DNA from: a virus
DNA length: 40,765 nt
Virus record (IMG/VR): IMGVR_UViG_3300003775_000008
Direction: 5' to 3' (one strand)
The first letter of the stretch is position 1, and the number at the start of each line of letters is the position of its first letter. The notes below the pieces were generated by a model, which did no database searches, was not told the DNA's origin, and worked only from the letters and a program-made list of their open reading frames with translations. This document shows positions 1-38,218 of the stretch, piece after piece. Both the position numbers and the translations under genes were made by a program.

Positions 1-101
1 GCCAAAGGGCCTCAGAAGGCCCGATTTCATTGGGGCGGCCCGATTCTTCCGACCACTTCCCGGATCTTCCCGGTCAGTTCAGGGGCATGCGTCCATTCAC
101 A
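1..101 (+). repeat. Terminal direct repeat copy 1 (identical to 40665-40765)
   Basis: Direct comparison: gccaaagggcctcagaaggcccgatttcatt...ggggcatgcgtccattcaca is present at both window ends. Identity is bounded only by the window edges. Confidence 0.95.
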
Positions 102-188
102 AATGATGTAAGCGGCCGCGTGGTTCTGAACTTTCGGACGCGTGGAGCTGAACTCGCCGTTCATGCGTCCGATTTGTAACATGCGTCC
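86..188 (+). repeat. Direct 9-mer CATGCGTCC x3 (86-94, 162-170, 180-188); a fourth copy lies at 40633-40641
   Basis: Read directly. All four copies have the same orientation. Copies 40633 and 180 extend to CATGCGTCCGCGA. Confidence 0.8.
117..154 (+). repeat. Tandem 16-mer CGCGTGGNNCTGAACT x2 (117-132, 139-154), 22-bp period
   Basis: cgcgtggttctgaact versus cgcgtggagctgaact, 14/16 identical. Confidence 0.75.
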
Positions 189-224
189 GCGACTGGAGGG
201 GTGCTCCCAGTCGGCGAGGTCCAG

Positions 225-233
225 TTATCCACA
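225..233 (+). promoter_or_regulatory. Perfect DnaA-box consensus TTATCCACA
   Basis: Exact 9-mer in the non-coding end region. A related TTGTCCACA lies at 40281-40289. Function not established. Confidence 0.3.
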
Positions 234-290
234 GTCGGCCTGAAAGGCCTGTGAGGACGCTTCAAAGGCCCTTTGCGACAACCCGGCAGA

Positions 291-1427
291 CTAGATCGGC
301 TGGGCAAAGACGGCAGACCAGTGCATATGGCTGCTCTTGTGGTGCCGCATTTCCCGTAGCTGGAAGGTGATCCGCACGCGCCCGATGCGCGCCACCTCGA
401 CCTCGGCTTCCCGCGTTTCCGGCTCGCCCTTCGCCGGCGGGGGCAGCTGACTCGATGCGGCGGACAGTTCCTCCACCGACACGCTTGCCAGTACGCCGTT
501 CGGGTGGAATGGGTCTTTCAAGTCGGGCATCCGACCGTCGCCGTATTGCACCAGCATCTTCAGCGCCGTCATGCCGTTGCGCACGCCCTTGTCCTCGTCG
601 CAGTTGTTGAAGATCATGTGAGCGTGCCGCGCCTTGTAGGCCAGCCGCACCGTCTCAGCGATGATCCCCTTGAGCTCGGCATCGGAGTACTCGTAGGAGA
701 AGCGCTCCGCCGGCGAGGACACCGCCGCGTTGTACGTCTCGGTGTTCCGGCCATGCAGGCGCACCAGCGTGTAGTTCGGATTCGTGACCTCCCAGACCGG
801 CGGCACGCTGTTGTCGAAGCCTCGCGGCCCATCGACCACCGTGTGCACGGCGTTCAGGGCGCGCAGCATGGCAAGAGTTTCCACCGTGCGCCTCGTGCCG
901 TCCCACCAACTGCTGTGCCGGAACTCGACGCTGATGGTGTCCCTCGGCAGCTTCTGTCGGATGGACTCCAGGTGCGCAACCACCCGCGGGCTCGGCACCA
1001 CCGAGGGCGGGAACTGGAAGTGGATCAGGCCCAGCTTCCCGTTCAGGCGCAGCGGCTCGAGCGACTGGTGGAACGCCTCCCACAGCGCATCCTTCACCTC
1101 GTCGGCCGTGTCGCGGTAGAGGAGCCGCTTCCGGCCGGGCAGCAGCTCTTTCACGCCACGCGGCAGCACCTGTACGTCGGTCTGGTGCCCGGTGAAGAAC
1201 CGGAAGGCCTTCACGTTGAACACGAACCCCTCGGGCGTGCGGGCCGCCCAGTTGTGCGTGTTCGTCTGCGAGGGAATGGCGTAGTAGCTACTGTCCACCT
1301 CGACCAGCGGGAAGATGCTGGCGTAGTAGCGCAGGCGCGCCTCCGGCGTCTTGCAGTCCGGAGGGTAGAAGCGGCCGCAGTCGATCAGCGTCTTCTCGGC
1401 CCAGGAAGCATGCCCCACGAGAGTCAT
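291..1427 (-). CDS. DUF72 (YecE/UPF0759-like TIM-barrel) protein with an extra C-terminal tail of about 90 aa
   Basis: N-terminus GHASW..FYPP..RLRYYASIFPLVEVDSSYY..W..TPEGFVFNVKAF fits the DUF72 signature as I remember it. It lies 32 nt downstream of the methylase on the same strand. Confidence 0.75.
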   Translation of the reverse strand: MTLVGHASWAEKTLIDCGRFYPPDCKTPEARLRYYASIFPLVEVDSSYYAIPSQTNTHNWAARTPEGFVFNVKAFRFFTGHQTDVQVLPRGVKELLPGRKRLLYRDTADEVKDALWEAFHQSLEPLRLNGKLGLIHFQFPPSVVPSPRVVAHLESIRQKLPRDTISVEFRHSSWWDGTRRTVETLAMLRALNAVHTVVDGPRGFDNSVPPVWEVTNPNYTLVRLHGRNTETYNAAVSSPAERFSYEYSDAELKGIIAETVRLAYKARHAHMIFNNCDEDKGVRNGMTALKMLVQYGDGRMPDLKDPFHPNGVLASVSVEELSAASSQLPPPAKGEPETREAEVEVARIGRVRITFQLREMRHHKSSHMHWSAVFAQPI

Positions 1428-1459
1428 GTCCCATTATGGGCAGAGAGGCGAGCACAAGG

Positions 1460-2230
1460 TCAGAAGTTCGTGATGAGCACCTCGCCGACGACCTGCGTGG
1501 CCTTGGACGCGATGCTGTAGCGCGTCTTGACAGCCTCGATTCGGAAGGCGCCGAAGGTCTCGCGCACCCCAGGGTTGTCGTTGAGGCTCAAGATGAACTT
1601 GCCCTTCACGCGGGCCAGGATGGCCGCCAGGCGCGCGAAATCCTCCCGGTCGAACACTCCCTCGCCATAGTCCTTTTCGTTGCCCCAATACGGCGGGTCG
1701 ACGTAGAACAAGGTGGCAGGCTTGTCGAAACGCTGTATGACCTGGTCGAAGGGCTTGTTCTCGATGAACACACGCGCCAAGCGCATGTGCACGTCGCTCA
1801 GTTCCTCCTCGATACGCAACAGGTTCAGCCTGGGCCCGGCCGTGGCCGCGATCCCGAAGGTCGGCTTGTGGATCTTGGCTCCGAAGCTGGTCTTGGCCAG
1901 GTAGAAGAACCGCGCCGCCCGCTGAATGTCCGTGAGCGCATCCGGAGGCATCGACAGGAAGGCGTCGAAGTCATCGCGGGCCACCAGCATCCAGCGGAAC
2001 TGCGCCACCAGCTCTGCGAGGTGGTGCTTGACGCACCGGTACAGGTTGGTCAGGTCGCGGTTGATGTCGTTGATGATCTCGACCTTGCTTTCCGGCTTTT
2101 TAAAGAGCACCCAGGCCGCGCCTGCGAACACCTCGCAGTAGGTCTGGTGAGCGGGCATCCGCTCGATGATCTGGTCTGCCAAGCGACTCTTGCCGCCTAG
2201 CCATGCCAACGGGCTTTTCTGTTGCGCCAT
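1460..2230 (-). CDS. N6-adenine DNA methyltransferase, D12/Dam class
   Basis: WLGGKSRL N-terminal motif and the FYVDPPY catalytic motif. ATG 2230 is preceded by GAGGA. The ORF-track start 2233 is a GTG one codon upstream. Confidence 0.9.
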   Translation of the reverse strand: MAQQKSPLAWLGGKSRLADQIIERMPAHQTYCEVFAGAAWVLFKKPESKVEIINDINRDLTNLYRCVKHHLAELVAQFRWMLVARDDFDAFLSMPPDALTDIQRAARFFYLAKTSFGAKIHKPTFGIAATAGPRLNLLRIEEELSDVHMRLARVFIENKPFDQVIQRFDKPATLFYVDPPYWGNEKDYGEGVFDREDFARLAAILARVKGKFILSLNDNPGVRETFGAFRIEAVKTRYSIASKATQVVGEVLITNF

Positions 2231-2408
2231 CACGTTCCTCGTGGTGTGACGCTCGCCGGCGTGCTGGTGTGGGGCTCGGGCTGCTGCGATCAGCGGCGCT
2301 GGCTCTCCAGTGGTTCATCGTCCCGCAGCGCGGGCACTTGATCTCAACAATCCCTGCGTCGACCATTGCGAGCTTTCGCGCGCAATGGCCGCATCTGACT
2401 TCCTGCAT
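2100..2408 (-). CDS. com: Com-like zinc-ribbon translational regulator
   Basis: MQEVRCGHCARKL..VEIKCPRCGT has the same CxxC...CPRC layout as Mu Com. AGGTGG lies upstream of ATG 2408. The ORF runs 131 nt into the methylase gene in another frame. Confidence 0.75.
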   Translation of the reverse strand: MQEVRCGHCARKLAMVDAGIVEIKCPRCGTMNHWRASAADRSSPSPTPARRRASHHEERDGATEKPVGMARRQESLGRPDHRADARSPDLLRGVRRRGLGAL

Positions 2409-2537
2409 TCGGCACCACCTATGATTCGCCCCGCCTAGCTAGGTGGCAGGGTCTTCGGTCGATGCCGTGCGTGTTCACGGCGGAGACGGGTGGAGCGGGT
2501 GTTCCCGCACCCAAACCACTCGCCCTGTCTTTTTTTG

Positions 2538-3113
2538 CTAGCTCGGCCAGCCCGTCGTTGTGTCGTATTCCTCCAGGCCCGGCCGATCGTTGGCGACGAG
2601 CAGCGCCTCGATCGCTTCGAGGTGCACCCGCTCATTGGAGAAGCAAAGCTCGCGCTTCACGATGAATGCCGCGTAGGCGGCCTCCAGGTCCGTCGCCGCG
2701 ATGCTGTACCAGACTGGCGGCTGGTCGAGGAGGATGTCGATCGAGGTCACTCCCAGCGCCGCGTGCTGCAGCGCGATCGGCCCGACACGCGCCAGATCAG
2801 CATCCGTGGGCCGGAAGCGCCGCCCGCCAGCAAGTTCGACGCCTTCGGTTATCAGCGAGACACGCTTGCCCGTGACCGCCCATCTTGCGTACATGGCAAC
2901 GTCCGCGAGCGGAGGCGGTGGCGCGATGCTGGTGAGGGCGCCGTCGACGACCCAGTACCCGCTCGGGGTTGCATAGGGATCGAACTCAGGGGGGAGCGGC
3001 TCTTCGAGCTCAATGCGGCCCTGCCAGCTTTCCGGCTCGGGGTAGTTCCCGGCGTCGGTGTCTTGCCACTGGATCACCTGCAGATTCGAGAGAATGTACA
3101 ACGCATATTTCAT
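2538..3113 (-). CDS. Putative tail fibre assembly/chaperone protein (position-based)
   Basis: 192 aa starting MKYALYIL. ATG 3113 lies 1 nt after the fibre stop. The longer track ORF 2538-3479 overlaps the fibre gene out of frame and is discounted. Confidence 0.5.
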   Translation of the reverse strand: MKYALYILSNLQVIQWQDTDAGNYPEPESWQGRIELEEPLPPEFDPYATPSGYWVVDGALTSIAPPPPLADVAMYARWAVTGKRVSLITEGVELAGGRRFRPTDADLARVGPIALQHAALGVTSIDILLDQPPVWYSIAATDLEAAYAAFIVKRELCFSNERVHLEAIEALLVANDRPGLEEYDTTTGWPS

Positions 3114-3114
3114 G

Positions 3115-4314
3115 TCATCGCTCCAGTGAGAAGAAGCCGGGACCGCCAGCGCCTCCGGCACCTCCGTTGGCGCCGCCGGCAGAGCTACCGTAGCCACCGC
3201 CGCCACCACCGCCACCACCGCCGTAGCTGCCACCGGGGCGCCCTTGAACACCAGTGCTACCAGCACGTCCACTGCCACCACCGCCACCAAAGGGGCCACT
3301 GGCGCCTTGCCCACCGTTGCCGACGCCGCCGTTGATCCCCCCCGCGCCGTCGTTGCCATAGGACCCCAGTGGGTCCCCGTTGGCGGGTGTGCCGCCCGCA
3401 GGGGTGCCAGATCCGGTCCATTGATTTCCGCCTGATCCGCCGCCTCCTGGCGGGCAGTTGACCACCGTCGTAGCCCCATCCATCATGGTCGTTGCTGTTC
3501 CGTTTCCGCCGGCACCACCCGGCGTAGTCGGAGTTCCGTTACTTCCTCCGGACCCTCCCACGGTTGGCACTGTGATCGTGTAGGCCTTACCGGGCACCAC
3601 AGCAGTGGGCAAGCGAAGCACTGGGGAACCAACACTGCCTCCAGCTCCACCACCGCCGACGCCCAGGGTGTTCGTCGCGCCACCACCGCCGCCACCACCA
3701 CCGCCACCACCAATCCCCGATGCCCAGACTAGGAAGCAGCCGAGCGGGCAGACCCAGACGCTATTGCTGAGCCAGCGGCTAACGCGGGCTCCCTGGTACA
3801 TCTCCACCAGCCAAGCGCTCACGCCGTTCGAGCGCAGGTGCACGATCTCGCCCGGCGAGAGTGCGAAATTCGTGGTCAGCCCAAGGTCGAAGATGTCCGC
3901 TCCCGCGCAGTTCACGGTGACGGTGTTCGCGGACGAATCGGTGCGGCGAATCGCAAGAGGCAAGCCGCGCACAGCGGATACCCCTGGCAGATTGAGAATC
4001 ACGTTGCCCGCTGCCGCGTTGATGAGCAGAAGGCCTCCGTCACCAGGCGTCAGCGTCGTCGTGCCGTTCGCGATCACGCGGGTGCCAGCACCCGCCATGC
4101 GACGAATGGCTTGGAGCATCTGTGTGAGGTCGCCGCCGGACGCGACGAGCCCGCCCGCTTCCAGCGTGTTGATGATCTCCTGCTGTACGCCGTTCGCCCA
4201 GAGATAGCTGAAGTAGGTCGCCAACACGCCCGCGCCCGGATTGCCGGGGCCGAAGCCGTGCTTGCCGACGCCGAAGAGGTCGAGAACCTTGTTGGAGGTC
4301 TGAATGAAGTCCAT
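3115..4314 (-). CDS. Tail fibre protein with glycine-rich C-terminal half
   Basis: 399 aa immediately after the gp48-like gene. WVCPLGC is followed by G11 and G10 runs and GGxGG repeats. Confidence 0.7.
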   Translation of the reverse strand: MDFIQTSNKVLDLFGVGKHGFGPGNPGAGVLATYFSYLWANGVQQEIINTLEAGGLVASGGDLTQMLQAIRRMAGAGTRVIANGTTTLTPGDGGLLLINAAAGNVILNLPGVSAVRGLPLAIRRTDSSANTVTVNCAGADIFDLGLTTNFALSPGEIVHLRSNGVSAWLVEMYQGARVSRWLSNSVWVCPLGCFLVWASGIGGGGGGGGGGGATNTLGVGGGGAGGSVGSPVLRLPTAVVPGKAYTITVPTVGGSGGSNGTPTTPGGAGGNGTATTMMDGATTVVNCPPGGGGSGGNQWTGSGTPAGGTPANGDPLGSYGNDGAGGINGGVGNGGQGASGPFGGGGGSGRAGSTGVQGRPGGSYGGGGGGGGGGYGSSAGGANGGAGGAGGPGFFSLER

Positions 4315-4321
4315 GTTCGCC

Positions 4322-4894
4322 TTAAGGTGCGTAGCCCAGCAGGGCCACGGTGTGTGCGGGCTTGTGTCGCCCGATCACGCATTCGAGCTGGGTGTTTCCC
4401 CATCGACGCAGCTGCACGTCGCAGGGGCTTTCGCATGTGGCTTCGAAGATGGCCGTCGAGATCGGGACATTCAGACGCCAGAGACCGATGAAGTCCTCTC
4501 CGTTGACCGGGCTGTCGCACGGATCCATGCACGTCATCGGGTCGAACTCGGTGATCGTGCAGCCGGGGTAGCCCAGGCTCGCCGCGAGCGCGATCATGTA
4601 CGGCCGCGAGAGGTCGCCACGGCCACGGATGCGCGCAAGCAGATTCAGTCGACGAGCGTCTGCCGGAGCGCCGGCACCGCCGATGCACGCATCCGGCAGG
4701 CTGTAGTTGCGCTCCCAGTCCCCGAGCAAGACAACAGTTCGATCGGGCTGTTGCTCCGCGAACAAAGTGTCTGCACTGTTCAGAGCTTCATCCAAGACGG
4801 CTGCCGTCGACGCCGCCTCAGCTCGCACGCCTGGCGCATTGCGCTCGTAGGCTTGCGGCGGCAGACAGGCGATCAGGGCGTCTTGGGTATTCAC
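4322..4894 (-). CDS. Mu gp48-like baseplate/tail protein (DUF2313, YmfQ-like)
   Basis: LPPQAY..LLGDWERNYSLP motif. GTG 4894 lies 3 nt after the baseplate-J stop. The track ORF extension to 5443 overlaps gene J out of frame. Confidence 0.7.
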   Translation of the reverse strand: MNTQDALIACLPPQAYERNAPGVRAEAASTAAVLDEALNSADTLFAEQQPDRTVVLLGDWERNYSLPDACIGGAGAPADARRLNLLARIRGRGDLSRPYMIALAASLGYPGCTITEFDPMTCMDPCDSPVNGEDFIGLWRLNVPISTAIFEATCESPCDVQLRRWGNTQLECVIGRHKPAHTVALLGYAP

Positions 4895-4896
4895 GG

Positions 4897-6000
4897 TTAG
4901 GTCAGCGTCTTGACGCCACAGGTGACGATTTCGAGGGCCAGGGATGTGACCGAGCTTGTCACGTTGGCTGCAGGAGAGACCAGAGTGACATCGGTCACTC
5001 CGCGAACGTTCATGAGGGCATTGATCAACGCGGCGCGCACGAGCGTCTGGCCGGGAGCCAGTGCTGCAAAGACAGCATCGATCGCCGCTGTGAGCGCTGG
5101 CAGCAGATACGTCGCGCCAGTCGATTCGGCCACGACCGGATCGAGCGTGTAGCCAGAAGCCAGCGCAAGCATGGCCGTCACTGGCGTGACGATGGGCGTG
5201 GGAGCCAGGGCCAGGACGGGGCTGCTGTTGCGCATGCCGACTGGACGCCTTACATCCAGAACCGCCTGAACCGCCGCGAGCAGCGGCGCATCCGGAAGGC
5301 CGATGGTGGGCATGGGAACCACGTCGACCGTCCCTGCACCTCGGCGGACATCGAAGACGAAGACCCGAGCCACACCCGGTACCGCGAGGGTCCAGCGCTT
5401 GTAGTCGTCGATGTTGCCGCCTTGTGCCTCTTCGCCGAGCCATAGCAACAGGCGCGATAGCAGCGAGTCGTAGCTTTCGACATCCGCTCCGCCCGTCATC
5501 GTCAGGATCGTGGCATTGCCAGTGATGCCGGCTGGCGGTGCATTAACGGTCGCGGCCGTATTGGGCGACTGATTTCCAGCGGCCCCGGCAGCGGTCGCTG
5601 CAGCAGCCAGATCGACGTAGCCGCCAGCGCCAGCGACGCCGGCCGCAGTCGCTGCGTAGTAGATCGACTGCGCTGTGAAGGCTTGCTGTCCTAAGGCCAC
5701 GGGCGAGCCTTCTGTCCCGAAGAAGCGCACGGTACCGGTGGCCACCGACGCCGCCTTGCGGTAGATATTGCGCTGGTTGGCCATCTTCTCCATCAGATCG
5801 TCGTCGGCCAGGTCGGGGAACGCCTGGCGGTAGACCCACATCTGGTGGGCGTACAGCCCCTCCACGACGGCGGCCGTGGCCGTGGCGCGCACGAAGTGGT
5901 CGCTGTCCGGGCCGATCGCAGCGTCAGGCCACTGGTTTGCGACGGCCTGCAGGTAGCGGTTGCGGATCTGGTCGAACGATGGAACGGGGTATGAAGACAT
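4897..6000 (-). CDS. Baseplate J-like protein (Mu gp47)
   Basis: 367 aa. The N-terminus SFDQIRNRYLQAV..GPDSDHFVRATA is typical of the baseplate J family. Synteny between gp46 and gp48. Confidence 0.8.
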   Translation of the reverse strand: MSSYPVPSFDQIRNRYLQAVANQWPDAAIGPDSDHFVRATATAAVVEGLYAHQMWVYRQAFPDLADDDLMEKMANQRNIYRKAASVATGTVRFFGTEGSPVALGQQAFTAQSIYYAATAAGVAGAGGYVDLAAAATAAGAAGNQSPNTAATVNAPPAGITGNATILTMTGGADVESYDSLLSRLLLWLGEEAQGGNIDDYKRWTLAVPGVARVFVFDVRRGAGTVDVVPMPTIGLPDAPLLAAVQAVLDVRRPVGMRNSSPVLALAPTPIVTPVTAMLALASGYTLDPVVAESTGATYLLPALTAAIDAVFAALAPGQTLVRAALINALMNVRGVTDVTLVSPAANVTSSVTSLALEIVTCGVKTLT

Positions 6001-8277: not shown

Positions 8278-9520
8278 AGAGCACGTCCCCCCGTTCGATC
8301 AGCGCCTGGCGGCCCAGCTGGTTGAGTGCCACCAGTTCGGATGCCCGGTCCGGCGTGCCGTACATGGCATGGGCGACCAGGCGCACCGGGCCCGACACAG
8401 GGCTTTCGCGCTGCACCAGCGGCGGGCGCAGGTTGATCACGGCCCGCGCGGCCTCCTGCACCTGCCAGGCCAGCGTGGCCAGCGCGGTGCTGGCCTGGCC
8501 GCTTGCCTCCGGGCTCAATGCGGAGCGGGCTGCGTCGATCGCGATCTGGCAGGTGGTGCGGGTCTGTGCCGTCAGCTGCTCGATGTCCTTGCGCTGAAGC
8601 ATGGGCACGTCGGCTTCGCCGGCGAGCACGATCGCGGCGGCCTCGGCGATCGCCGCCGCGCAGTGGACACGTGCATGCGCTTGGATGATCGCCACGTCGG
8701 CCAGCATGGCGGCGCTCGGCACAGGCACATTGGGGAGCAGCACCAAGGTGGCGGGCGCCAGCTGCGTGCGCACCACGTTGAAATCAGCGATGGCCGATAC
8801 CGCCGTGAGCACGACCGCTGGGCCTTCGTAGACCGCGCTGCGACCGCCGAAAGACAGCCCCTGAAATGCCCGGTCGACCGTGGCCACGAGGTCGGCCGCG
8901 TAGGCCCTGGGATACAGCAGCGGATCCAGTGCGCTGAGCAGAAGCCCCGAGGAGCCTGTGATGGACAGAATCCGCCCCACGTAACTCTGCGCTTGGCTGA
9001 ATGCGTCCGTGAGCACCGAAATGCGCGGCAGGTCGAAGGAAGTACTTCCCACGAAGCGCTCAAGAGCATCATCTGCGCTTGCCCTGCACGACTGCGCGCC
9101 CGAGGCGATCGCGTCCGTCATGGTCGACGTGCTGTTCTCGGAGAACACCAGCTCGCGGACGCTGTCTTCCGTGAATATGACGTGGACCACGGCGCCGTCG
9201 ACAAAGTCGGCGTCGTGCTCGTCTTCCCAGGACGTTGCCATCACGGTCATCAGGCCGTGAATCGGGTGCACTAGGTCGCCGGTACCGGGCAGCTCCAGCG
9301 CGTCGACGAACTGCTGCAGCTCGCTCTCGTAGTCGTCGCCGAAGAACACTGCGCGCACGCGCACCCGTCGCGGGCCGAGGCCCATGTCTTCAAGCTCGGC
9401 CCCTGCGGTATAGGGGTACTGGTGCTCGGCCACCGCGCGATCGCCGGCGCGGCCGACGCGCTCGATCTGGATCGGGATTCCGCGGAAGCTAGCGTCGAGA
9501 AGGGTGTCTTGCCAGGCCAT
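8261..9520 (-). CDS. DNA circulation protein (Mu gpN-like)
   Basis: N-terminus W..LLDASFRGIPI....HQYPY....EDMG....FFG.DY....LVHPIHG matches the DNA_circ_N pattern. Confidence 0.8.
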   Translation of the reverse strand: MAWQDTLLDASFRGIPIQIERVGRAGDRAVAEHQYPYTAGAELEDMGLGPRRVRVRAVFFGDDYESELQQFVDALELPGTGDLVHPIHGLMTVMATSWEDEHDADFVDGAVVHVIFTEDSVRELVFSENSTSTMTDAIASGAQSCRASADDALERFVGSTSFDLPRISVLTDAFSQAQSYVGRILSITGSSGLLLSALDPLLYPRAYAADLVATVDRAFQGLSFGGRSAVYEGPAVVLTAVSAIADFNVVRTQLAPATLVLLPNVPVPSAAMLADVAIIQAHARVHCAAAIAEAAAIVLAGEADVPMLQRKDIEQLTAQTRTTCQIAIDAARSALSPEASGQASTALATLAWQVQEAARAVINLRPPLVQRESPVSGPVRLVAHAMYGTPDRASELVALNQLGRQALIERGDVLYAYAR

Positions 9521-9523
9521 CGG

Positions 9524-11548
9524 TCAGTTCCTGCGCGCGTCGAGACTGTTTTGCTGGTTGGTCGACGCGGCGATCTCGCGGCCATCGAGCGTCACCTGGA
9601 TCGGGCGATTTCCTGCCGCCTTCGTCTCGGCGATCAGCTGGTCGAGCTTCTGGGCGAGCGTGTTGCGGTCCTGCTCGAGCTGGGCCTTTTCTTGCTCAAG
9701 CTTGGCGATGTAGGCCGGAGAGGCGCCGCCCTCGCGCGATGCGTCGGCGAGCTGGCCCAGCTCGCTGATGCGCGCGTTGCGCGAGGCAATGCGATCAGTG
9801 AGGCCCTCCTTGCTGTTGGCGCGCTCGCTGAGCGCATAGCCGGTGGCGAGGATCGGTGCGCCCACGGCTACGAGGCCAGCGGCAGTGCCACCAACGACGA
9901 CGCCTGCGGTGCCCAGTGTTACCCCACTAGCTGCGCTGGCGGCTGCTGGTGCGGTCCAGCTTGGCGACGCGTTCATGACGCCCCTACCCGCTGCAGCAGC
10001 TGCGGCGCCCCCGGCGCTGGCTGCCGCTGAGCCCCCAAGCAGGTTCTTGATGGCGCCCCCACCGAGCAGCATCAGCGCGCCGCTCGCGACAGCTGCTGCC
10101 GCTGTCAGGGCGGTGATACCCAGCTTGAGCGTCTCCATCGCGGTGCCCAGCTCGGGGTACTTTTGATAGAGCTGAGTCGTGTGCTCAGCGAGCTTGCCGA
10201 TCGCCTCATTCGCTCCGCCGAGACCATTGGTCTGGGCGATGAGTTTCTCGTTCTCACTCTGCTGCACCTTGAAGTCAGCGGTCTGAGAAATCAAGGCGAA
10301 GTTGCTCTCGCCATATTGACCGTTGGCACCCAGCACGGTTTTATTGACGCCCTTGATGTAGTCCCGCTTGTTGAGTTCGGCGATCAGAGGCATGAGGGCC
10401 TGCCGGTCCTGGATGATCTTTCCGATCGCGCTCCCCTGCAGGATGTCCACTTGGGCATCCAGTGACGCCTTTCGCTCTTCGTCGTTTCCTGCCGAGTTGG
10501 CTTTCTTGCGCAGAGCAACCAGGCGAGGATCCTTGCTGGCGATCTGGTCGACCAGGTTGACGAACGCATCGAGCGAGTTCACTCCCTTGGCTCGCGCCGC
10601 CGCAAGTGACCCGGAAAGGTCGATACCCAGCTTCTTGGCGTCCTGTGCGGTGTCAGATGAGTTGATCTTGAGCAGCAGGTTCAGCAGATTGTTTCCCGCC
10701 TCGTCCTTGCTGCCGGCAGTGATCACTGAGCCTTGAGCCGATGCGAGGATCCGGGCATATCCCTCCATGCCATTGAGACCAGACATCTGAGCCGACGCGA
10801 GCAGCTTCGGCAGCCATTTGGCCATGTCCTTCAATTCGAAGCCGCCGGCCTGGCCAGCGGCCAACGCCATGTCGAGCATCTTGGGGATGTCGGCCTCTTT
10901 GAAGCCGTTTTGAAGCGCCCGAACAACAATGGTGGAGAGGTCTCCCACGCTGGCATTGCCAGCCGCTGCGTACTTGGAAACCGTAGGCAGCAAGCTCTTG
11001 GCCTGGTCAGGTGTGACCGACCCGCTGGCCAGCATGTCGTTCAGCCCGCCAAGCATGTCCTCGCGCTTGCCGCCGCCAGCGCGCATGGACGCGACGACGA
11101 TGTCATCCAGTTCGCGCATGCCCTTGATGCGACCTGGAAGATCTCGATCAGCGAACGCAGTATTGGCCGCATCGGCCAGTTGCCGGTCGTATGTGCGGGC
11201 CTGCTGCAGCGGCTGCGCCACAACCATCTTGGCAGCCTGGAACGCGGCCGCACCAGCGGCGACACCCTTGACGATGTTGCCGGTGGCCGACCATGCGCTG
11301 CGCAGCCGCTCAGCGAGGCTGATTGCCCGTTGCGTCTCACGGGCGAGGTCTGCTGCCTGCCTGGTCGCCTGCTGTGGCCCCCGCATGCTGGCCAGCGTTG
11401 TACCGAGTTGCTTGCTCGACGCGTTGCCCTTTTGTAGCTCCTGCTCGATCTGCTTGAGGTTCGACTCCACTTCCCCCATCGCGCGCCGTAACGGCGCCAC
11501 CAGCTTGTCGTTCAAGCTGGTGGTGAGGGCGATGCGGAGATCTGTCAT
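9524..11548 (-). CDS. Tail tape measure protein
   Basis: 674 aa, Ala/Gly/Leu-rich and helical, located directly after the chaperone frameshift product. Confidence 0.85.
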   Translation of the reverse strand: MTDLRIALTTSLNDKLVAPLRRAMGEVESNLKQIEQELQKGNASSKQLGTTLASMRGPQQATRQAADLARETQRAISLAERLRSAWSATGNIVKGVAAGAAAFQAAKMVVAQPLQQARTYDRQLADAANTAFADRDLPGRIKGMRELDDIVVASMRAGGGKREDMLGGLNDMLASGSVTPDQAKSLLPTVSKYAAAGNASVGDLSTIVVRALQNGFKEADIPKMLDMALAAGQAGGFELKDMAKWLPKLLASAQMSGLNGMEGYARILASAQGSVITAGSKDEAGNNLLNLLLKINSSDTAQDAKKLGIDLSGSLAAARAKGVNSLDAFVNLVDQIASKDPRLVALRKKANSAGNDEERKASLDAQVDILQGSAIGKIIQDRQALMPLIAELNKRDYIKGVNKTVLGANGQYGESNFALISQTADFKVQQSENEKLIAQTNGLGGANEAIGKLAEHTTQLYQKYPELGTAMETLKLGITALTAAAAVASGALMLLGGGAIKNLLGGSAAASAGGAAAAAAGRGVMNASPSWTAPAAASAASGVTLGTAGVVVGGTAAGLVAVGAPILATGYALSERANSKEGLTDRIASRNARISELGQLADASREGGASPAYIAKLEQEKAQLEQDRNTLAQKLDQLIAETKAAGNRPIQVTLDGREIAASTNQQNSLDARRN

Positions 11549-12062
11549 GTCGGCGGAGGCTTGCGGCGTGGAGTTCGGGGTGGCTTGCGCTTCTCGCGGC
11601 GGCTCACGTAGACCGTGGGGTATTCGTGGCCCTTACGGCCGGCTGCCGCGTTGAGGATCACTACTGCGTCGGCCATCGTGATATCGGCCGACTCCGTCCA
11701 GCTCAGACCTGCTTTGACGAGTCCGTGGCGGATGCGGAGGAGTTCGGCGCGGCCGCGATCGCGGCCAGCCGCTTTTTTTCGAGTTCCCCCGAGGCAGCGT
11801 CGAGCTGGTTGTAGTCAGACGGGTGCATCGAACACAGCAGGTCGTAGGTGATCTGCTTGGGCTCCAGCGTGCCGAGTCGGACGAGTTGACGGGCCATCAG
11901 CGCCGCATTCACGGCGACGCCGTTGTGTCCGCCCACCTGGTCGACCGCATCGATGTTGTCGCCCAGCGTTGGCAGGCGCATCTCGAAATCGCGGTGCAGA
12001 ACACCGGCGACCTCAACGCCCTGCTTCAGCGTGCCAGTGACGGTGATGCCCTTGACGCTCAT
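11545..12062 (-). CDS. Tail assembly chaperone, -1 frameshift-extended product (GT-like)
   Basis: After a slip at 11778-11772 the -1 frame stays open for 75 codons (..AAGRDRGRAELLRIRHGLVKAGLSWTESADITMADAVVILNAAAG..). It ends at a TGA overlapping the TMP ATG (ATGA at 11548-11545). Confidence 0.7.
11703..12062 (-). CDS. Tail assembly chaperone (G-like, zero-frame product)
   Basis: 119 aa between tube and TMP. Contains the slippery heptamer near its 3' end. Confidence 0.75.
   Translation of the reverse strand: MSVKGITVTGTLKQGVEVAGVLHRDFEMRLPTLGDNIDAVDQVGGHNGVAVNAALMARQLVRLGTLEPKQITYDLLCSMHPSDYNQLDAASGELEKKRLAAIAAAPNSSASATDSSKQV
11751..11766 (-). other. Frameshift-stimulating hairpin (perfect palindrome GGCCGCGATCGCGGCC)
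   Basis: Starts 5 nt downstream of the heptamer. Confidence 0.6.
11772..11778 (-). other. Slippery heptamer A_AAA_AAG in the correct phase
   Basis: The - strand reads GAA AAA AAG in the chaperone zero frame. Confidence 0.75.
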
Positions 12063-26421: not shown

Positions 26422-27246
26422 TCAGTTCAGTGTGATGCCCGCCCAACGCGCGCGGCCCAGAATCTCGAAGTCCCGTTCGCCATCGTCATCCGCAGTGATG
26501 TCGAACGGGGGGAATTCCGACTGGTTCTTGCTCGATACGCGAAGCGTTCGCCCAGGCAGGCGTTGAAGGCTCTTGATCAGAAGCGCGCCATCGAGGCGGA
26601 CCATATGAACGCCCTCCGTTGTCGCATCGCGATCTCTTCGATCCAGCATTGCAACATCGCTTGGATGCAGCAGCGGCTCCATCGATCGGCCTCGCACACC
26701 AACCAACGCCAGTTCATTGTGAGAGATGCCTAGCGCGTGGCGGATGTACGTCCGCTCGAAGGGGCGCATGGCCTTAACCAATTCCAGATCGTTGAAGACG
26801 CCTGGACCGGCGCTCGCTGCGATATCGAAGTGCGGAACGTAGATGTAGTCCCCGACCTCGACCGCCAGCAGGGACACGGGCACGGACTCCGCCGCGTAGG
26901 CCCGTGCGGACAGCACTTCTGTGCCGTCTGAGTTTCCAGATTCGAAGCTGCCTTGAGGAAACGGCGAGCCCAGAAGAAGCCATGCGGCAGAAACGTTAGT
27001 TGACTTCGCGATCTTGAGGATCAGGGAAGCATCGGGCACGGCTTTGCCTCGCTCGATCTTGCTCACGGTGTTGCTGTGGACGCCGATGGCATCGGCTAGG
27101 TCTTGCTGAGCGGTCGCCCCGCGTGCCAGCTTCACCCGCGCGCCGATCGCGCTCGCCACGTCCATACCGTCTGTGGCGTCTTCCCCGTCTGCACTCACTC
27201 CTTCGGCATGACGAGGTGCAGCCATTTCACTCTTAATTGTGTCCAT
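26422..27246 (-). CDS. CI/LexA-type repressor (XRE HTH plus S24 peptidase domain)
   Basis: HTH QQDLADAIGVHSNTVSKIERG. S24 motifs VRGRSMEP and LLIKSL. The start is either ATG 27246 (leaderless model) or ATG 27225. Confidence 0.85.
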   Translation of the reverse strand: MDTIKSEMAAPRHAEGVSADGEDATDGMDVASAIGARVKLARGATAQQDLADAIGVHSNTVSKIERGKAVPDASLILKIAKSTNVSAAWLLLGSPFPQGSFESGNSDGTEVLSARAYAAESVPVSLLAVEVGDYIYVPHFDIAASAGPGVFNDLELVKAMRPFERTYIRHALGISHNELALVGVRGRSMEPLLHPSDVAMLDRRDRDATTEGVHMVRLDGALLIKSLQRLPGRTLRVSSKNQSEFPPFDITADDDGERDFEILGRARWAGITLN

Positions 27247-27257
27247 AAACACAATTA
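27234..27257. promoter_or_regulatory. Operator-like perfect palindrome TAATTGTGT-N6-ACACAATTA
   Basis: Read directly. Overlaps the Pc -10 and the repressor ATG 27246. Confidence 0.6.
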
Positions 27258-27282
27258 GATGTTGGCGCCGTATGCCGGTCAA
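27254..27282 (-). promoter_or_regulatory. Candidate repressor promoter Pc: TTGACC-17 nt-TCTAAT
   Basis: -35 at 27282-27277 and -10 at 27259-27254. ATG 27246 begins 7 nt after the -10. Confidence 0.5.
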
Positions 27283-27359
27283 CTGTAAATCCATACATAA
27301 GGTCAACCGTGGAAGCCCTTGGAGTGAGTGTCTAACAAAAAAAGTTGGCTAATGAGCTT

Positions 27360-27386
27360 TTGAATTCACTCCATTGTGTTTATGAT
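27360..27386 (+). promoter_or_regulatory. Candidate early promoter Pe: -10 TATGAT (27381-27386), weak -35 TTGAAT/TTTTGA
   Basis: ATG 27394 begins 7 nt after the -10. No SD precedes any candidate ner start. Confidence 0.4.
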
Positions 27387-27409
27387 GACAATCATGGACA
27401 CACAAATGG
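27371..27409. promoter_or_regulatory. Operator-like inverted repeats over Pe (CCATTGTGT...ACACAAATGG; inner ATGAT-GACA-ATCAT at 27382-27395)
   Basis: Shares TTGTGT/ACACAA half-sites with the palindrome at 27234-27257. Confidence 0.5.
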
Positions 27410-27690
27410 TTGAGTCACCCCAGGACTGGCACCCCGCCGACGTGGTGGCGGCCCTCCGAAAGGTGGGTACATCACTCAACAAGATTGGTAAAGCCAACGG
27501 CTATACACACATTCAAGGGGTTCTCGTTCGCCCTTGGTGGGCGGTGGAACAGCTCGTCGCCGGCGCGCTGCAACTGCCCCCGGCTGAGATCTGGCCATCC
27601 CGCTATGCGCCTGGCGTCTCACGCGAGCACGCAAAGAAGCTGACGCGCAATCGGCGCGCCCTGCGTGAGATCCGTCGGAGGGCCGCGTGA
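27394..27690 (+). CDS. ner: Ner-like DNA-binding regulator
   Basis: DWHPADVVAALRK...EIWPSRY matches Mu Ner. Start uncertain (27376 through 27406). The stop overlaps the transposase GTG (GTGA). Confidence 0.8.
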   Translation: MDTQMVESPQDWHPADVVAALRKVGTSLNKIGKANGYTHIQGVLVRPWWAVEQLVAGALQLPPAEIWPSRYAPGVSREHAKKLTRNRRALREIRRRAA

Positions 27691-29813
27691 CCGCATACGC
27701 CACTGCATCCGACCTGGCCGGGCTGCCCGGCTTCCCCTCATCCGAGTTTCGCGCCCGGGCAGCAGCTGCTCGCCTCGGACTTCCCAGCCGCCCCCGCCCT
27801 GGACGTGGCGGCGGGCTCGAATATGCGGTCGAGGCTTTGCCCCCCGCCGCCCGGCTCGCATGGGCTGCACGCTGTTCCGCGGCGAACGAAGGCCAGATGG
27901 CCTCCACGCAGACCGCGCCCCAAGCGCGCGCATCAGCTTCCCGTGGGCCGGCGCTGGTCACGGGCTGGCGCAAGGACCGCCAGGACGCCATCGCGCGCGT
28001 CCTTGTGCTCTTTCAGCGGTTCTGGCAGGCCTACGGTGGTCCGCTCACACCAGCGCTGAAGGCTTTCTGCCACGCCTGGAGCGGCGGTCTCTGCTCGATC
28101 GACATCCCGGCCGAAGCGTCCCTGCGCGAAGCCTTCCCCCGCATCACCTTCAGCAGCCTGCGCGCCTGGCACCTTGGCGTGCAGGAGAAGGGGCTGGCGG
28201 CGATCACCCCGCGCGAGCATCACCGCAAAGGCCAATACGCCGCGCTGGCCGGCGAGGTCGGCAACGCGATGCTCGCCCTCCTGATCGACAAGCCGCACCT
28301 CTCGGCGCAGACCCTGTACGACGCGCTGGCGACCCAGTTCCCCAACCTTCCCACGGTGCGCTCATTTCGCCGCGCGCTGGGGTACTGGAAATCGCAGAAC
28401 GCCCAGTTGCTCGAGGCAGTCGTCAACCCGGATGGCTGGCGCAACAAGTACATGAGCGCCGCTGGCAGCTACAGCGAGGGCATCACCGCACCCAATCAGA
28501 AGTGGGAGATGGACAGCACGGTGGGCGACGTGATGCTCAACGATGGCCGGCGCCACCACGTGGTCGGCGTGATCGACGTCTTCACGCGCCGCCGCCTGTT
28601 CATCGTCACGCGCACCAGCCGCGCCAACGCGATCATGAGCCTGATCCGCCTGGCGATCCTGGCATGGGGCGTGCCCGAAGAGATCAAGACCGACAACGGT
28701 GCCGACTACGTCGCCGAGGTTCTCGACTCCGCGCTGCTCGGCTTGAACATCAGGCACTCGCTGTGCCACAAGTTCTCTCCGCACGAGAAGCCGCACATCG
28801 AGCGTGCCATCGGCTCGCTGATGCACCAGCTGTTCGAGACCTTGGGCGGATACATCGGCCACAGCGTCGCCGAGCGCAAGGGCATCGAGGCCCGCAAGGG
28901 CTTTGCCGATCGGATCATGAAGGACGAATCCTTCACGGTGGAAATGCGGCTGTCGCCCGAGCAGCTGCAGGGCGAGATCGAGGCGTACTGCAATCACCTG
29001 CTCGACAAGCCGCGCAGCTACCTTTCCGACCGCACGCCTCGCCAGATGGCCACGGGCTTCCCGGTCAAGTCGATCAACGAACGTGCGCTCGACGTGCTGC
29101 TGGCGCCCAGCGCGCACAAGGGCACCGCCCGCGTTGGCAAGAAGGGGCTGAAGATCGGCCGTGGCGGCTTCTACAACCATGCGCTGCTCGGCGGCATGGA
29201 AGGCCAGACCGTCCAGATCAAGATCGACGATTCGAACATTGGCCGCTGCTGGGTGTTCGACCTCGACGGCATCTTCGTCTGCGAGGCCCTTGACTACGCC
29301 CGGCTGGGCATCAACAGCGCCGAGGTCGCGGCCGAGCGCAAGGCGCATCAGGTCAAGGTGCTGCGCGAGTCCAAGAAGCAGCTCAAGGCTCTCACCCGCG
29401 AGTTCGATACGAACGCAGCCATCGCGGCCATCAACCGCCGCAACACCGACGCGGCCGTCGAGGCGTCCAACGTCGTATCGATCCACCGCACGCCGATGGA
29501 GCACACCAGCCCAACCATCGAGTCGATCACGACCGCAGATGCGCCGATGGTCAGCGACGCGCAGATCGCCGCCGCACAGGTCGCGCTCGTCGAACGCCTG
29601 TCAAAGCCGGCGGAAGTGAAGTCTTTGCACGCCACACCGCAGGAGCGCTACGCGCGGTGGCTGCTGCAGGAGGCGCGCGTGCAGCGCGGCGAAGCACTCA
29701 CCCCCGAAGAAAAGAACTGGTTTGAAGGCTACGTGAACGGTGCCGAGTGGGCATCGCAGCGGCGCTATTTCGAGACGTTCGGGCTCACCCCCGAGCAGGT
29801 GCTCGCCGGCTGA
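27687..29813 (+). CDS. Mu-type DDE transposase (MuA-like)
   Basis: 708 aa. N-terminal Mu-type HTH domains. rve core: WEMDST..D, IKTDNG, HEKPHIER. Confidence 0.9.
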   Translation: MTAYATASDLAGLPGFPSSEFRARAAAARLGLPSRPRPGRGGGLEYAVEALPPAARLAWAARCSAANEGQMASTQTAPQARASASRGPALVTGWRKDRQDAIARVLVLFQRFWQAYGGPLTPALKAFCHAWSGGLCSIDIPAEASLREAFPRITFSSLRAWHLGVQEKGLAAITPREHHRKGQYAALAGEVGNAMLALLIDKPHLSAQTLYDALATQFPNLPTVRSFRRALGYWKSQNAQLLEAVVNPDGWRNKYMSAAGSYSEGITAPNQKWEMDSTVGDVMLNDGRRHHVVGVIDVFTRRRLFIVTRTSRANAIMSLIRLAILAWGVPEEIKTDNGADYVAEVLDSALLGLNIRHSLCHKFSPHEKPHIERAIGSLMHQLFETLGGYIGHSVAERKGIEARKGFADRIMKDESFTVEMRLSPEQLQGEIEAYCNHLLDKPRSYLSDRTPRQMATGFPVKSINERALDVLLAPSAHKGTARVGKKGLKIGRGGFYNHALLGGMEGQTVQIKIDDSNIGRCWVFDLDGIFVCEALDYARLGINSAEVAAERKAHQVKVLRESKKQLKALTREFDTNAAIAAINRRNTDAAVEASNVVSIHRTPMEHTSPTIESITTADAPMVSDAQIAAAQVALVERLSKPAEVKSLHATPQERYARWLLQEARVQRGEALTPEEKNWFEGYVNGAEWASQRRYFETFGLTPEQVLAG

Positions 29814-29894
29814 GCGATCAGGCGACGGGCAAAAAAACGCCCGGCAAGGCTGGCAGGCCAAACCGGGCAAGCACATGAAGTGAAGGAACGAAGT

Positions 29895-30635
29895 ATGACA
29901 AAGAAATTGGCAACAGCGGGTGGCGCGATCGCACCGACCAGCAACATCAGCCTCATCCACACCACGATGGAAGCGCTGACGGACCGCTCCGCCGGCCTGC
30001 CGGGCATCGGTGCCTTCTACGGCCCCAGCGGCCTCGGGAAGAGTTCCGGCGCCAGCTACGCCAGCCACCCGGCCGGTTTCAACGGCATCTACGTGTGCTG
30101 CCGCAGCATCGAGACCAAGAAGAGTTTCGCCGAACTGATCTGCAAGTCCATCGGCATTCAGGCGCGAGGAAATGTCCCTGCCATCTTCGACGAGATCGTG
30201 CAGGTGCTCGTGTCCTGCAACCGGCCGTTGATCGTGGACGAGGTCGACTACATCGTTGACACCCGCACCCTGGAATTCATTCGCGACCTGCATGACGCCT
30301 CGGGCGCGGCCGTACTGCTGATCGGTGAAGAGCACCTGCCCACCAAGCTCAAGAAGCACGAGCGCTTCGACAACCGTGTGCTCGTCTGGCAGCCGGCCGT
30401 GCGTTGCACGGGCTCCGACTTCGACCAGCTCGCCATGCAGTACATCGGCGGCATCGAGATCGCGCCCGAACTGAAGAAGCGCGTGCTTCAGGAGACCAAT
30501 GGCATCACGCGACGCGTCGTGGTCAACCTGGAGAACATCAAGCGCTGGTGCGATCGCCAGGGCACCAAGGTTGCGCCGGCCGACGCACAGGTGGAGCTGT
30601 ACACCGGCGCCGCGCCGGGCCGGAGGATCGGCTGA
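29895..30635 (+). CDS. MuB-like AAA+ transposition ATPase
   Basis: Walker A GPSGLGKS and Walker B LIVDEVD. ATG 29895 with AAGGA upstream. Confidence 0.85.
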   Translation: MTKKLATAGGAIAPTSNISLIHTTMEALTDRSAGLPGIGAFYGPSGLGKSSGASYASHPAGFNGIYVCCRSIETKKSFAELICKSIGIQARGNVPAIFDEIVQVLVSCNRPLIVDEVDYIVDTRTLEFIRDLHDASGAAVLLIGEEHLPTKLKKHERFDNRVLVWQPAVRCTGSDFDQLAMQYIGGIEIAPELKKRVLQETNGITRRVVVNLENIKRWCDRQGTKVAPADAQVELYTGAAPGRRIG

Positions 30636-31261
30636 TGGCGCGCCGCCCCATCGAGCACGAGATGGTCGGCCTGCAGACGCCACGCGAGCGCGTGTGGCGC
30701 GCCATCCGCAAGCTGCGCACCTTCACGATGCTGCAGGTGCAGGACGCCACCGACCCGCTGGTGCCGGTCCATGCATGCGAGTCCTATGTGACCTGGCTGG
30801 TGACGGCCGGATACCTGGGCGTCGCGGAAGCGCACCGGACCAGGCGCGACAACGGCAAGTACTCCGAGCAGACCTATCGGCTGCTCAAGGACAGCTTCGA
30901 GGCTCCCCGCGTGACTCGCGCGGGCGAGCCCGTCTCGCAGGGCATGGCCACGCTCGCGATGTGGCGCGCGATGAAGATCCTGCGCGAGTTCGACTGGGAG
31001 GACGTCTGCCGGGCGGCGAGCACGCAGACCTTTCAGGTCGCGCCGACCACCGCGTCGACCTACGTGCGCTTCCTGGCTCGCGCGGGCTACTTCCGCGAGC
31101 TGCGCAAGCCCAAGCCCGGTACGCCCGGCCGGTACCGCCTGGTGCGTGACACGGGAGCGCACGCGCCTGCGATCACACGCCGCAAAACGGTCTTCGACCG
31201 CAACACGGGCGAGTTCACCTGGCAGCAGACCCCGCAGGAGGTGTGCGATGGCATCGAGTAA
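30635..31261 (+). CDS. Early protein with an internal tandem duplication (two winged-helix-like halves)
   Basis: The halves share WRA.K.LR.F...V...YV..L..AGY....YRL..D...AP..T. ATGA overlap with MuB. Confidence 0.6.
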   Translation: MARRPIEHEMVGLQTPRERVWRAIRKLRTFTMLQVQDATDPLVPVHACESYVTWLVTAGYLGVAEAHRTRRDNGKYSEQTYRLLKDSFEAPRVTRAGEPVSQGMATLAMWRAMKILREFDWEDVCRAASTQTFQVAPTTASTYVRFLARAGYFRELRKPKPGTPGRYRLVRDTGAHAPAITRRKTVFDRNTGEFTWQQTPQEVCDGIE

Positions 31262-31610
31262 GACGCCGCCGGCCAAGCCGCTGCCCACCGACGCGCTGGA
31301 GGCCCTGCAGAAGCTCTGCAGCGCGACCACCCAGGCAGCGGTCGCCCGGCGCCTCGGCGTGAGCGATGCGGCCGTCAGCGGGGCTCTCAAGGGCCGCTAC
31401 ATCGGCAACGTCGAGCGCCTGGCCGAGCGAATCCGCGGCGAGCTGCTCAACGCGGTGGTGGCGTGCCCGGTGCTGGGCTCCATCACCACGCGGATCTGCC
31501 AGGACGAGCGCGAGAAGCCTTTTCACACCGCCAACCCGATGCGGGTGCAGCTCTGGCGCGCTTGCAAGGGCTGTCCCAACAACCCGGCGAACTTCAAGGG
31601 AGGCAAGTGA
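31248..31610 (+). CDS. HTH DNA-binding early protein with a C-terminal Cys cluster
   Basis: QAAVARRLGVSDAAVSGALKG HTH. CPVLG..C....C.GC. GGAGG before the ATG. Confidence 0.6.
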   Translation: MASSKTPPAKPLPTDALEALQKLCSATTQAAVARRLGVSDAAVSGALKGRYIGNVERLAERIRGELLNAVVACPVLGSITTRICQDEREKPFHTANPMRVQLWRACKGCPNNPANFKGGK

Positions 31611-31777
31611 TGGCTTCGCGTTACGACCGCCCGCCGATGCCGTGGATTCGACGCCGTGCGCGCAGGCTGATGCGCCTGCCCGACGCACCGCGTCACGACG
31701 CGGTCCAGGCTGCTGCGACTGACTACCGCCTCTTCGTTGGCCGAGGCTCGGCCGCAACCGCAAGGAGACCCGCATGA
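31610..31777 (+). CDS. Hypothetical small Arg-rich protein
   Basis: 55 aa. ATGA-type overlaps at both ends are the only support. Confidence 0.35.
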   Translation: MASRYDRPPMPWIRRRARRLMRLPDAPRHDAVQAAATDYRLFVGRGSAATARRPA

Positions 31778-32043
31778 ACCTCATGACCCGTTTGTTTGCC
31801 GACGCGCGCAGTGCACGGCGCCTGCGCGCTGCACGCGCCGAGATCCGCCGCACCGACCGTGCCCTGGCCAAACGCTTCCGCCAAGACAACCCCGGCTACG
31901 ACGATCTGTTGGACCCGCTGTTCATCGTGATCATGGTGCTCGCTGTGCTCGTGATCGTGCTGGACGTGCGTGGCGAAGGCGATGTCTCCTTCATCCTGAC
32001 CTGGTTGCGTGCTGTCGCGTCAGCGGTGGGGAGCTGGGCATGA
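31774..32043 (+). CDS. Hypothetical small membrane protein
   Basis: One TM segment, LFIVIMVLAVLVIVL. Coupled starts and stops. Confidence 0.5.
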   Translation: MNLMTRLFADARSARRLRAARAEIRRTDRALAKRFRQDNPGYDDLLDPLFIVIMVLAVLVIVLDVRGEGDVSFILTWLRAVASAVGSWA

Positions 32044-33067: not shown

Positions 33068-33076
33068 GGGCTCACC

Positions 33077-33421: not shown

Positions 33422-33445
33422 CCACTTTTTCACCTGGAGATCCAT

Positions 33446-36313: not shown

Positions 36314-36316
36314 GCC

Positions 36317-36691: not shown

Positions 36692-36692
36692 C

Positions 36693-38217: not shown

Positions 38218-38218
38218 C

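Follow-up and report, generated by a model that had tools for sequence, protein, structure and literature searches.

The window analysed here, the whole 40,765-nt stretch of IMG/VR virus record IMGVR_UViG_3300003775_000008, contains a Mu-like transposable phage of Variovorax. The distal end of its late strand carries a com homologue, a gene for a D12/Dam-class N6-adenine DNA methyltransferase (methylase) and a gene for DUF72L, a label used here for the tailed long form of DUF72 proteins (Table 1). DUF72L is encoded at 1427..291 on the - strand, 32 nt downstream of the methylase; the protein has 378 aa and combines a DUF72 TIM barrel with an additional C-terminal domain. A preliminary reading of the letters and open reading frames, made without database searches (the sequence-only reading), had described the locus correctly. 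It had recognised a Com-type zinc ribbon, an ORF running 131 nt into the methylase gene in a different frame, a methylase with WLGGK and DPPY motifs in the mom position at the end of the late strand of a Mu-like phage, and a 378-aa DUF72 protein with an extra tail beside the phage-end region. The same reading had made DUF72 the second, Com-controlled enzyme of a modification cassette. This assignment was not supported, the orientation, neighbours and divergence of DUF72L being independent of the methylase.

Table 1. Features of the window and of related loci (window positions unless a locus is named)
Feature	Position	Strand	Details
com homologue	2100..2408	-	Zinc ribbon, residues 1-41 (2286-2408); C-terminal extension overlaps methylase
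Small hairpin (predicted fold)	2299..2310	-	CUGGAGAGCCAG, presenting GAGAGCC
Predicted hairpin over methylase start	2228..2251	-	CGUCAC...GUGAUG; present in centroid structure
D12/Dam-class N6-adenine DNA methyltransferase	1460..2230	-	WLGGK and DPPY; GAGGA Shine-Dalgarno 5 nt before ATG
CATAAT, -10-like hexamer	1433..1438	-	5 nt upstream of DUF72L ATG, within GCCCATAATGGGNCATG
DUF72L catalytic core, DUF72 TIM barrel	543..1427	-	Residues 1-295; Pfam PF01904
DUF72L C-terminal tail domain	294..542	-	Residues 296-378; fused copy of orphan small-protein family
Mu-type phage end A	107..190	.	Terminal TG, imperfect terminal inverted repeat, GGACGC(A/G)TG motifs
Copy of the last 101 bp of the other phage end, with 5-bp spacer AATGA	1..106	.	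Identical to 40665-40765
S24 repressor	26422-27306	-	Early block
MuA-type transposase	27687-29813	+	Early block
Mor	39469-40242	+	Early block
Free-standing tail-family genes	L109 8001-8240; L110 8001-8237; L111 8001-8234		Proteins of about 80 aa

Com and the methylase

The com product is a 102-aa protein that starts MQEVRCGHCARKL...VEIKCPRCGT, and its cysteines at positions 6, 9, 25 and 28 form a four-cysteine zinc ribbon (CxxC ... CxxC). It matches the Pfam family Zn_ribbon_Com (PF10122; E = 4.5e-15, 55 bits, cut-off 22.9) and phrog_6417 'translational regulator' (E = 3.7e-16). The methylase matches the full Pfam profile MethyltransfD12 (PF02086; 1-253 of 253, E = 3.2e-31) and phrog_56 (E = 7e-84); its motifs read AWLGGK and VDPPYW, as in the D12 class, and the nearest solved structures are those of DpnM and E. 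coli Dam. The TIGR00571 score, 108.7 bits, is slightly under the cut-off of 114.85. Methylases of many phages, KS9, phiE125, VP882 and Bise among them, show about 50% identity to this protein. The gene in the mom position is this D12 methylase and not Mu Mom; no further modification-type gene was found in window 1-5000 (ORF list, Pfam gene calls), the remainder not having been screened for Mom.

The overlap between com and the methylase gene measures 131 nt from the ATG at 2230, or 134 nt from a GTG at 2233. In the sister phage L107, the com TGA overlaps the methylase ATG (ATGA, 4 nt), and overlaps of 53 and 89 nt occur in L002 and L016, respectively. Since a 2-nt indel relative to L107 pushes the com frame of the window beyond the L107-type stop, the long overlap is lineage-specific and has no special meaning.

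A hairpin is predicted whose 3' arm contains the methylase start codon and the upstream GUG and whose loop holds the Shine-Dalgarno sequence; this fold resembles the translation-inhibition structure of Mu. An equivalent hairpin with a U-A to U-G change is predicted in L107 (z = -2.9), and a different hairpin is predicted to cover the methylase start codon of L002 (z = -3.1). About 70 nt upstream, the loop of a small predicted hairpin presents GAGAGCC, which fits GAGNNCC, the motif selected for Mu Com (PMC6483171, also a source for the Com mechanism); the motif has only five specified bases, so the match is weak. An Rfam scan of window 1-3000 gave no match. With few diverged relatives for covariation, the RNA folds are consistent with Com control of the methylase, but are not conclusive. 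By analogy with Mu, the zinc-ribbon RNA-binding protein Com would be translated first and would then open the hairpin hiding the methylase start, so that the methylase would be made only late in infection; it would add m6A to phage DNA prior to packaging and thus protect it from restriction in the next host.

The assignment of com and the D12 methylase to a mom-type late module is supported. The identity, order and overlap of the two genes are observed, and the activation step and the methylation target are proposed by analogy with Mu and FluMu. The Com-gated methylase of the sequence-only reading stands to this extent, its family matches, gene order, overlap and predicted hairpin all being consistent with it. 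The arrangement is not new, because the Mu-like elements FluMu and Pnm1, the Hia5 island and phage B3 were described as having a com homologue followed by a Dam-related methylase that replaces mom, with Com control of this methylase presumed (PMC3299994). When the right end of phage B3 was inspected, ORF47/48 were not located there.

Structure of DUF72L

The core of DUF72L is a DUF72 domain (Pfam E = 7.9e-57, residues 21-286, 193 bits, cut-off 25.3). Its AlphaFold model has a mean pLDDT of 87, and the top Foldseek matches are the DUF72 structures 1ztv, 1vpy and 1vpq (E = 5e-20 to 1e-18), with target-normalised TM-scores of 0.83-0.88 (Foldseek). Beyond DUF72 entries, Foldseek returned generic TIM barrels only, such as glycosidases and sugar isomerases (E about 1e-3 to 1e-5). 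Crystal structures of DUF72 proteins date from 2004-2005; to our knowledge, the family is still without an assigned function. The invariant residues E43, D45, H136, Q138, E168 and R170 are retained in both long and short DUF72 forms. The long forms, about 378 aa in length and 55-98% identical to the window protein, are all tailed; the ordinary Variovorax DUF72 proteins have about 297 aa, lack the tail and are 58-61% identical to the window protein. A neighbour-joining tree of core domains places the long forms and four tail-less proteins in one group, separate from the housekeeping Variovorax DUF72, as would fit a single fusion and later divergence on mobile elements. Using a tblastn search of GenBank phages, only weak matches to DUF72L (34% identity or less) were found, in unannotated or host-derived records, and a structure search of viral proteins matched giant-virus DUF72 proteins alone. 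Literature searches did not turn up a DUF72 enzyme fusion as phage cargo.

The tail is predicted with good confidence to comprise one helix and a three-stranded sheet. It is kept in all 15 of the 15 long forms, with the motifs PNGxL, LPxP, GRV, HxKxxHxFW and FAxPI, which upholds the extra tail proposed earlier and shows it to be a conserved domain. No Pfam family was found in the last 89 residues and no PHROG in residues 296-378. The structural check suggested with the sequence-only reading succeeded for the core; for the tail, Foldseek found nothing below E = 0.47 in the PDB. A tail-only search of 1.84 billion representative proteins detected 99 homologues (E < 1e-3), nearly all of them free-standing proteins of 70-105 aa and a few with other N-terminal regions; these homologues also gave no Pfam, PHROG or PDB-fold match. 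The consensus of this orphan family of about 80 aa is NGIL...LPxP...GRVRI...RHHKS...W.W. In all three phage or prophage loci examined (L109-L111), the free-standing gene is the last one called before the contig end or before the adjoining host-type genes; neither a DUF72 core nor a methylase homologue turned up in these loci. A tblastn search of GenBank phages with one free-standing homologue gave no match. Because free-standing homologues occupy the same terminal slot, the tail can be read as a real conserved domain, a fused copy of an orphan phage protein from that slot; it is not recognisable as a modification module.

Position of DUF72L at the phage end

Phage end A starts at window 107 with TGTAAGCGG... 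(also given as TGTAAGCGGCCGCG...). The identical prophage (100%) is carried by metagenome contigs L004-L007, whose flanks depart from the window at 107 (L004, L007) or 102 (L005, L006), and the related phages L015 and L107 stop at a homologous TGTAAGCG... sequence, each with yet other flanks; it is these differing flanks that place the phage end at 107. GGACGC(A/G)TG repeats lie at 136-144, 162-170 and 180-188. Compared with the other end in inverted orientation, end A matches at 20 of 31 bases, the maximum among 20,000 random 31-mers being 19. The DUF72L stop codon is on the phage side, 184 bp from the end, in line with the location expected from the initial reading.

This mapping bears on the idea that DUF72 is host DNA adjoining the prophage and that its tail arose artefactually when the phage integrated into a host DUF72 gene at the 3' end. 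Variovorax genomes do have their own 297-aa DUF72, E. coli yecE, a DUF72-family gene, is a known insertion site of Stx prophages, and the same host genes (for an ECF sigma factor, FecR and a TonB-dependent receptor) lie directly upstream of DUF72L in L002 and L003. Against this, the Mu-type end lies beyond the DUF72L stop and four different flanks begin there, the same gene is found midway in P22-like prophages, and the tail is conserved and has free-standing homologues. As DUF72L lies inside the mapped phage end, an origin from flanking host DNA or as an integration artefact was rejected, and its probability is negligible.

Genomic contexts of DUF72L and its relationship to the methylase

DUF72L was found in seven independent genomic contexts. 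The first is the present Mu-like lineage (the window, L004-L007 and L015), where com, the D12 methylase and DUF72L are all on one strand; only here is DUF72L co-directional with the methylase. The second is the sister Mu-like phage L107 with its homologous end (Com 76% identical), in which DUF72L is inverted and reads inward from the end. In the third (L002/L026), com, a D12 methylase and a homologue of the anti-phage defence gene PD-T4-7 are convergent with DUF72L; in the fourth (L016, L108, L115), this position is taken by com and an N6_N4_Mtase-family methylase, and in the fifth (L003) by the D12 methylase of a phage with a lambda-like tail. The sixth (L106) comprises lysis genes and a YaaC-family gene, again convergent with DUF72L, and no methylase was detected in the DNA available. 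The seventh consists of P22-like prophages (L001, L008-L014, L017, L112-L114), where a variable island next to the gene for the small terminase contains DUF72L on the opposite strand and no methylase was detected within 10 kb on each side. DUF72L is thus opposite in strand to the neighbouring phage genes in six of the seven contexts. The adjacent cargo of the P22-like islands differs between relatives (L001, L008, L014, L017). In Pseudomonas phage Bise, it is the slot between the methylase and the genome end that holds other small genes.

The nucleotide identity of 90% between the window and the P22-like phages is confined to 293-1442, that is, to the ORF and 15 upstream bases. Next to DUF72L are methylases of two unrelated families, D12 and N6_N4, whose divergence from the window is discordant with that of DUF72L: 85% identity for the methylase versus 58% for DUF72L in L107, and 47% versus 83% in L002. 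In addition, 150 loci with host-type short DUF72 genes were surveyed, the first 79 of which were searched directly for methylases. Methylases were not among the recurrent neighbours at these 150 loci; the sole flanking D12 methylase, in L027, is 6.5 kb away, beside terminase and portal genes. These comparisons indicate that DUF72L is exchanged between unrelated phages as a single-gene cassette.

The gene also appears to carry its own expression signal. Four phage backbones that are unrelated to each other share a conserved element, GCCCATAATGGGNCATG (also GCCCATAAT), ahead of DUF72L, even where protein identity falls to 61%, and the CATAAT hexamer in it is inferred to be a promoter element placed for a near-leaderless mRNA. 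DUF72L would then be transcribed independently of Com.

The joint explanation that we favour, and hold to be probable if far from certain, is a com-methylase mom-type module beside a separate, autonomous DUF72L. Several observations weigh against it. The hairpin over the methylase start of the window is no more stable than shuffled sequence (z = 0.24-0.43), a consensus promoter scan called no promoter, and Foldseek with DUF72L gave no specific match to EndoIV or UV-damage endonuclease. Moreover, the shared strand and the 32-nt gap mean that DUF72L can be co-transcribed with the methylase in the window, and a methylase lies no more than one gene from DUF72L in five of the seven contexts, which leaves a functional tie a low probability. 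The last two points, together with the enzyme-like TIM barrel of a family with no assigned function, are what speaks for a single Com-gated operon of com, methylase and DUF72L, in which the two enzymes would make or process a modification beyond m6A. Such an operon is decidedly unlikely. It does not account for the convergent arrangement in the other methylase-bearing contexts (L107, L002/L026, L016/L108/L115, L003), for partner methylases of two unrelated families with discordant divergence, for the P22-like group and the available L106 DNA with no methylase detected, or for homology to other phages that is restricted to the DUF72L gene. The rarity of D12 methylases beside host DUF72 genes (L027 only) and the presence of free-standing tail homologues at phage ends with no methylase detected nearby also argue against it.

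The frequent methylase neighbour is best explained by position: in these phages the late genes end with the methylase, and the slot from there to the genome end is occupied by DUF72L. Accordingly, the linkage between DUF72 and com or methylase genes anticipated by the sequence-only reading is real as proximity, and co-directional in one lineage only. A type II restriction-modification pair of the methylase and a DUF72L nuclease was also considered and rejected, given the lack of a detected methylase in the P22-like group and L106, the two methylase families and the discordant divergence. The reading that fits DUF72L best is that of an autonomous accessory gene ('moron') in the variable slot that separates the last late gene from the phage end; we regard its mobility, its independence of the methylase and the origin of its tail as established.

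Putative function of DUF72L

Since all DUF72-invariant residues are retained, DUF72L is probably an active enzyme, and its chemistry is probably the same as that of cellular DUF72 proteins. In the literature, the DUF72 fold has been related to UV-damage endonuclease and EndoIV, and PolB2 and SRAP have been reported among DUF72 gene neighbours (PMC11791011, PMC3828134). A DNA-repair-type hydrolase is our leading guess for the role of DUF72L: it would most likely perform metal-dependent hydrolysis on damaged or unusual DNA, with the tail acting as a targeting or regulatory domain. As the specific Foldseek matches are to DUF72 structures only, the idea of a repair nuclease rests on this literature and on a weak context of a helicase-like neighbour and a LexA box. 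The former concerns 21 of the 150 host DUF72 loci: about 60 bp upstream lies a divergent gene whose product, going by Walker-A and DEYQD motifs, may be a UvrD-like helicase. The latter concerns the tail-less DUF72 nearest to DUF72L (72% identical; Variovorax sp. UC74_104, L194 9750-11700), which comes after a 66-aa gene that is itself preceded by a perfect LexA box, CTGTTTAAATATACAG. LexA control of DUF72L itself was considered and rejected, a CTGT-N8-ACAG box being absent upstream of every long form and present only at the tail-less UC74_104 relative. The edge of the UC74_104 island is within about 4 nt of the spot where the L004 Mu-like prophage meets the same host genes (L004 11321-11330), about 90 bp from tRNA-Pro.

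Alternatively, DUF72L could be a prophage-expressed defence or superinfection-exclusion gene, with the TIM barrel as a nuclease effector and the tail sensing or targeting invading DNA. In L002, L003, L106, L107, L108, L115 and L016, DUF72L is outermost and runs counter to the late operon, as is typical of prophage-expressed genes, and the cargo of the P22-like islands varies between relatives. It also adjoins the PD-T4-7 homologue that stands between the methylase and DUF72L in a prophage of Variovorax LT1R20 (L002 11155-12018; PADLOC E = 2.5e-32) and a marginally AbiGi-like gene in L001 (E = 0.002). Nevertheless, DUF72L itself matches no PADLOC model, ten further neighbouring genes have no PADLOC match, and the core is 58-72% identical to DUF72 proteins outside defence contexts. 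A defence role is therefore unlikely, and a defence island was rejected as an explanation, the PADLOC matches among the neighbours being limited to those two. The cargo genes of L001 are located at 9087-9692 and 11244-11573, and one of them encodes the AbiGi-like protein.

The fusion could also be viewed as a 'Rosetta stone'. The orphan protein of about 80 aa from Comamonadaceae phage ends might act with DUF72 enzymes, for instance as adaptor or as activator or inhibitor of host DUF72, and the fused version might process DNA as a self-contained factor, in repair, defence or counter-defence. This proposal is tentative and improbable; if true, the locus would give a first experimental handle on DUF72.

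Phage ends and genome layout

The assignment of the element to Mu-like phages is based on gene content and on the phage ends. The window encodes a MuA-type DDE transposase (domains rve, Mu-transpos_C and HTH_Tnp_Mu_1), a MuB-like ATPase (AAA_22) and Mor; the phage has TG...CA ends with inverted repeats and varied insertion sites. The late region encodes Mu-type baseplate and tail proteins, including Mu Gp45/46/47-type baseplate proteins. A 399-aa protein of the tail-fibre region (3115-4314, - strand) has very long glycine runs, with stretches of at least 10 consecutive G. The early block also codes on the + strand for the MuB-like ATPase, DUF3164 and DUF5131; this block (window 26422-40242) is inverted relative to Mu. 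From about 27 kb, the early and late operons run apart, each toward a phage end, and the transposase gene therefore lies 11-27 kb from the ends acted on. The motif TGCGAGTT occurs five times in the window, once inverted, and all copies lie together at 40346-40498, in the non-coding DNA between Mor and the phage end; the cluster may serve as a protein-binding array.

Two Mu-type ends (...CATTCACA at 101 and 40765; TGTAAGCGG... at 107) are separated in the window by only 5 bp, AATGA, and AATGA likewise flanks end A in the integrated copies L005 and L006. The order end B-AATGA-end A looks like a circular or tandem junction keeping one 5-bp flank; it could alternatively be an assembly effect. We know of no description of such a 5-bp-flank junction for a Mu-like phage. 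The exact phage end sequences are absent from IMG/VR viral contigs. In L005 and L006, a stretch of 387 bp of host DNA (L005 11322-11708), the 3' end of an apparent acyl-CoA-synthetase-type gene, lies beside the phage end and is missing in L004 and L007 (L004 11322); the difference could be due to an adjacent deletion or to a second insertion 387 bp away.

Comparison with known systems

The locus resembles Mu com-mom in that a zinc-ribbon Com is encoded directly upstream of, and overlapping, a modification gene at the distal late end, by the transposon end, and in the hairpin predicted over the start codon of the downstream gene. It differs from Mu in having a Rossmann-fold D12 methylase instead of the Mom acetamido-adenine enzyme and an extra gene, DUF72L, between the modification gene and the end. 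The closest parallels are FluMu HI1522.1/HI1523, Pnm1 NMA1821, Hia5 and B3 ORF47/48, where Com, with its regulation presumed, is followed by a DPPY N6-adenine methylase replacing mom (PMC3299994); the window methylase differs from this group in belonging to the widespread phrog_56 group. The Com-methylase half is accordingly one more example of the known mom replacement in Mu-like phages, and the attractive 'two-enzyme hypermodification' reading, which proved unsupported, can be corrected.

With cellular DUF72 proteins (DUF72/YecE/TM1631/EF0366; PF01904; 1vpq, 1vpy, 1ztv), DUF72L has the fold and the invariant residues in common, but it occurs on tailed phages, belongs to a separate mobile-element clade and has an 83-aa C-terminal domain that cellular members lack. 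Like phage morons and the accessory genes of prophage ends, it is a single-gene cassette with what is inferred to be its own expression signal and with variable neighbours, located either at the genome end or within a variable island, and is exchanged between unrelated phages; it differs from known morons in that the cargo is a DUF72 enzyme fusion. DUF72L thus represents a distinct DUF72 lineage of phages and mobile elements; it carries a fused small phage domain that is undescribed and has repeatedly been retained in the terminal slot of unrelated phages of Variovorax and Comamonadaceae. Such repeated retention in a terminal accessory slot suggests that the gene has a selectable function between phage and host, and the tail-domain family offers a candidate partner for DUF72, from which concrete experiments follow for a widespread family.

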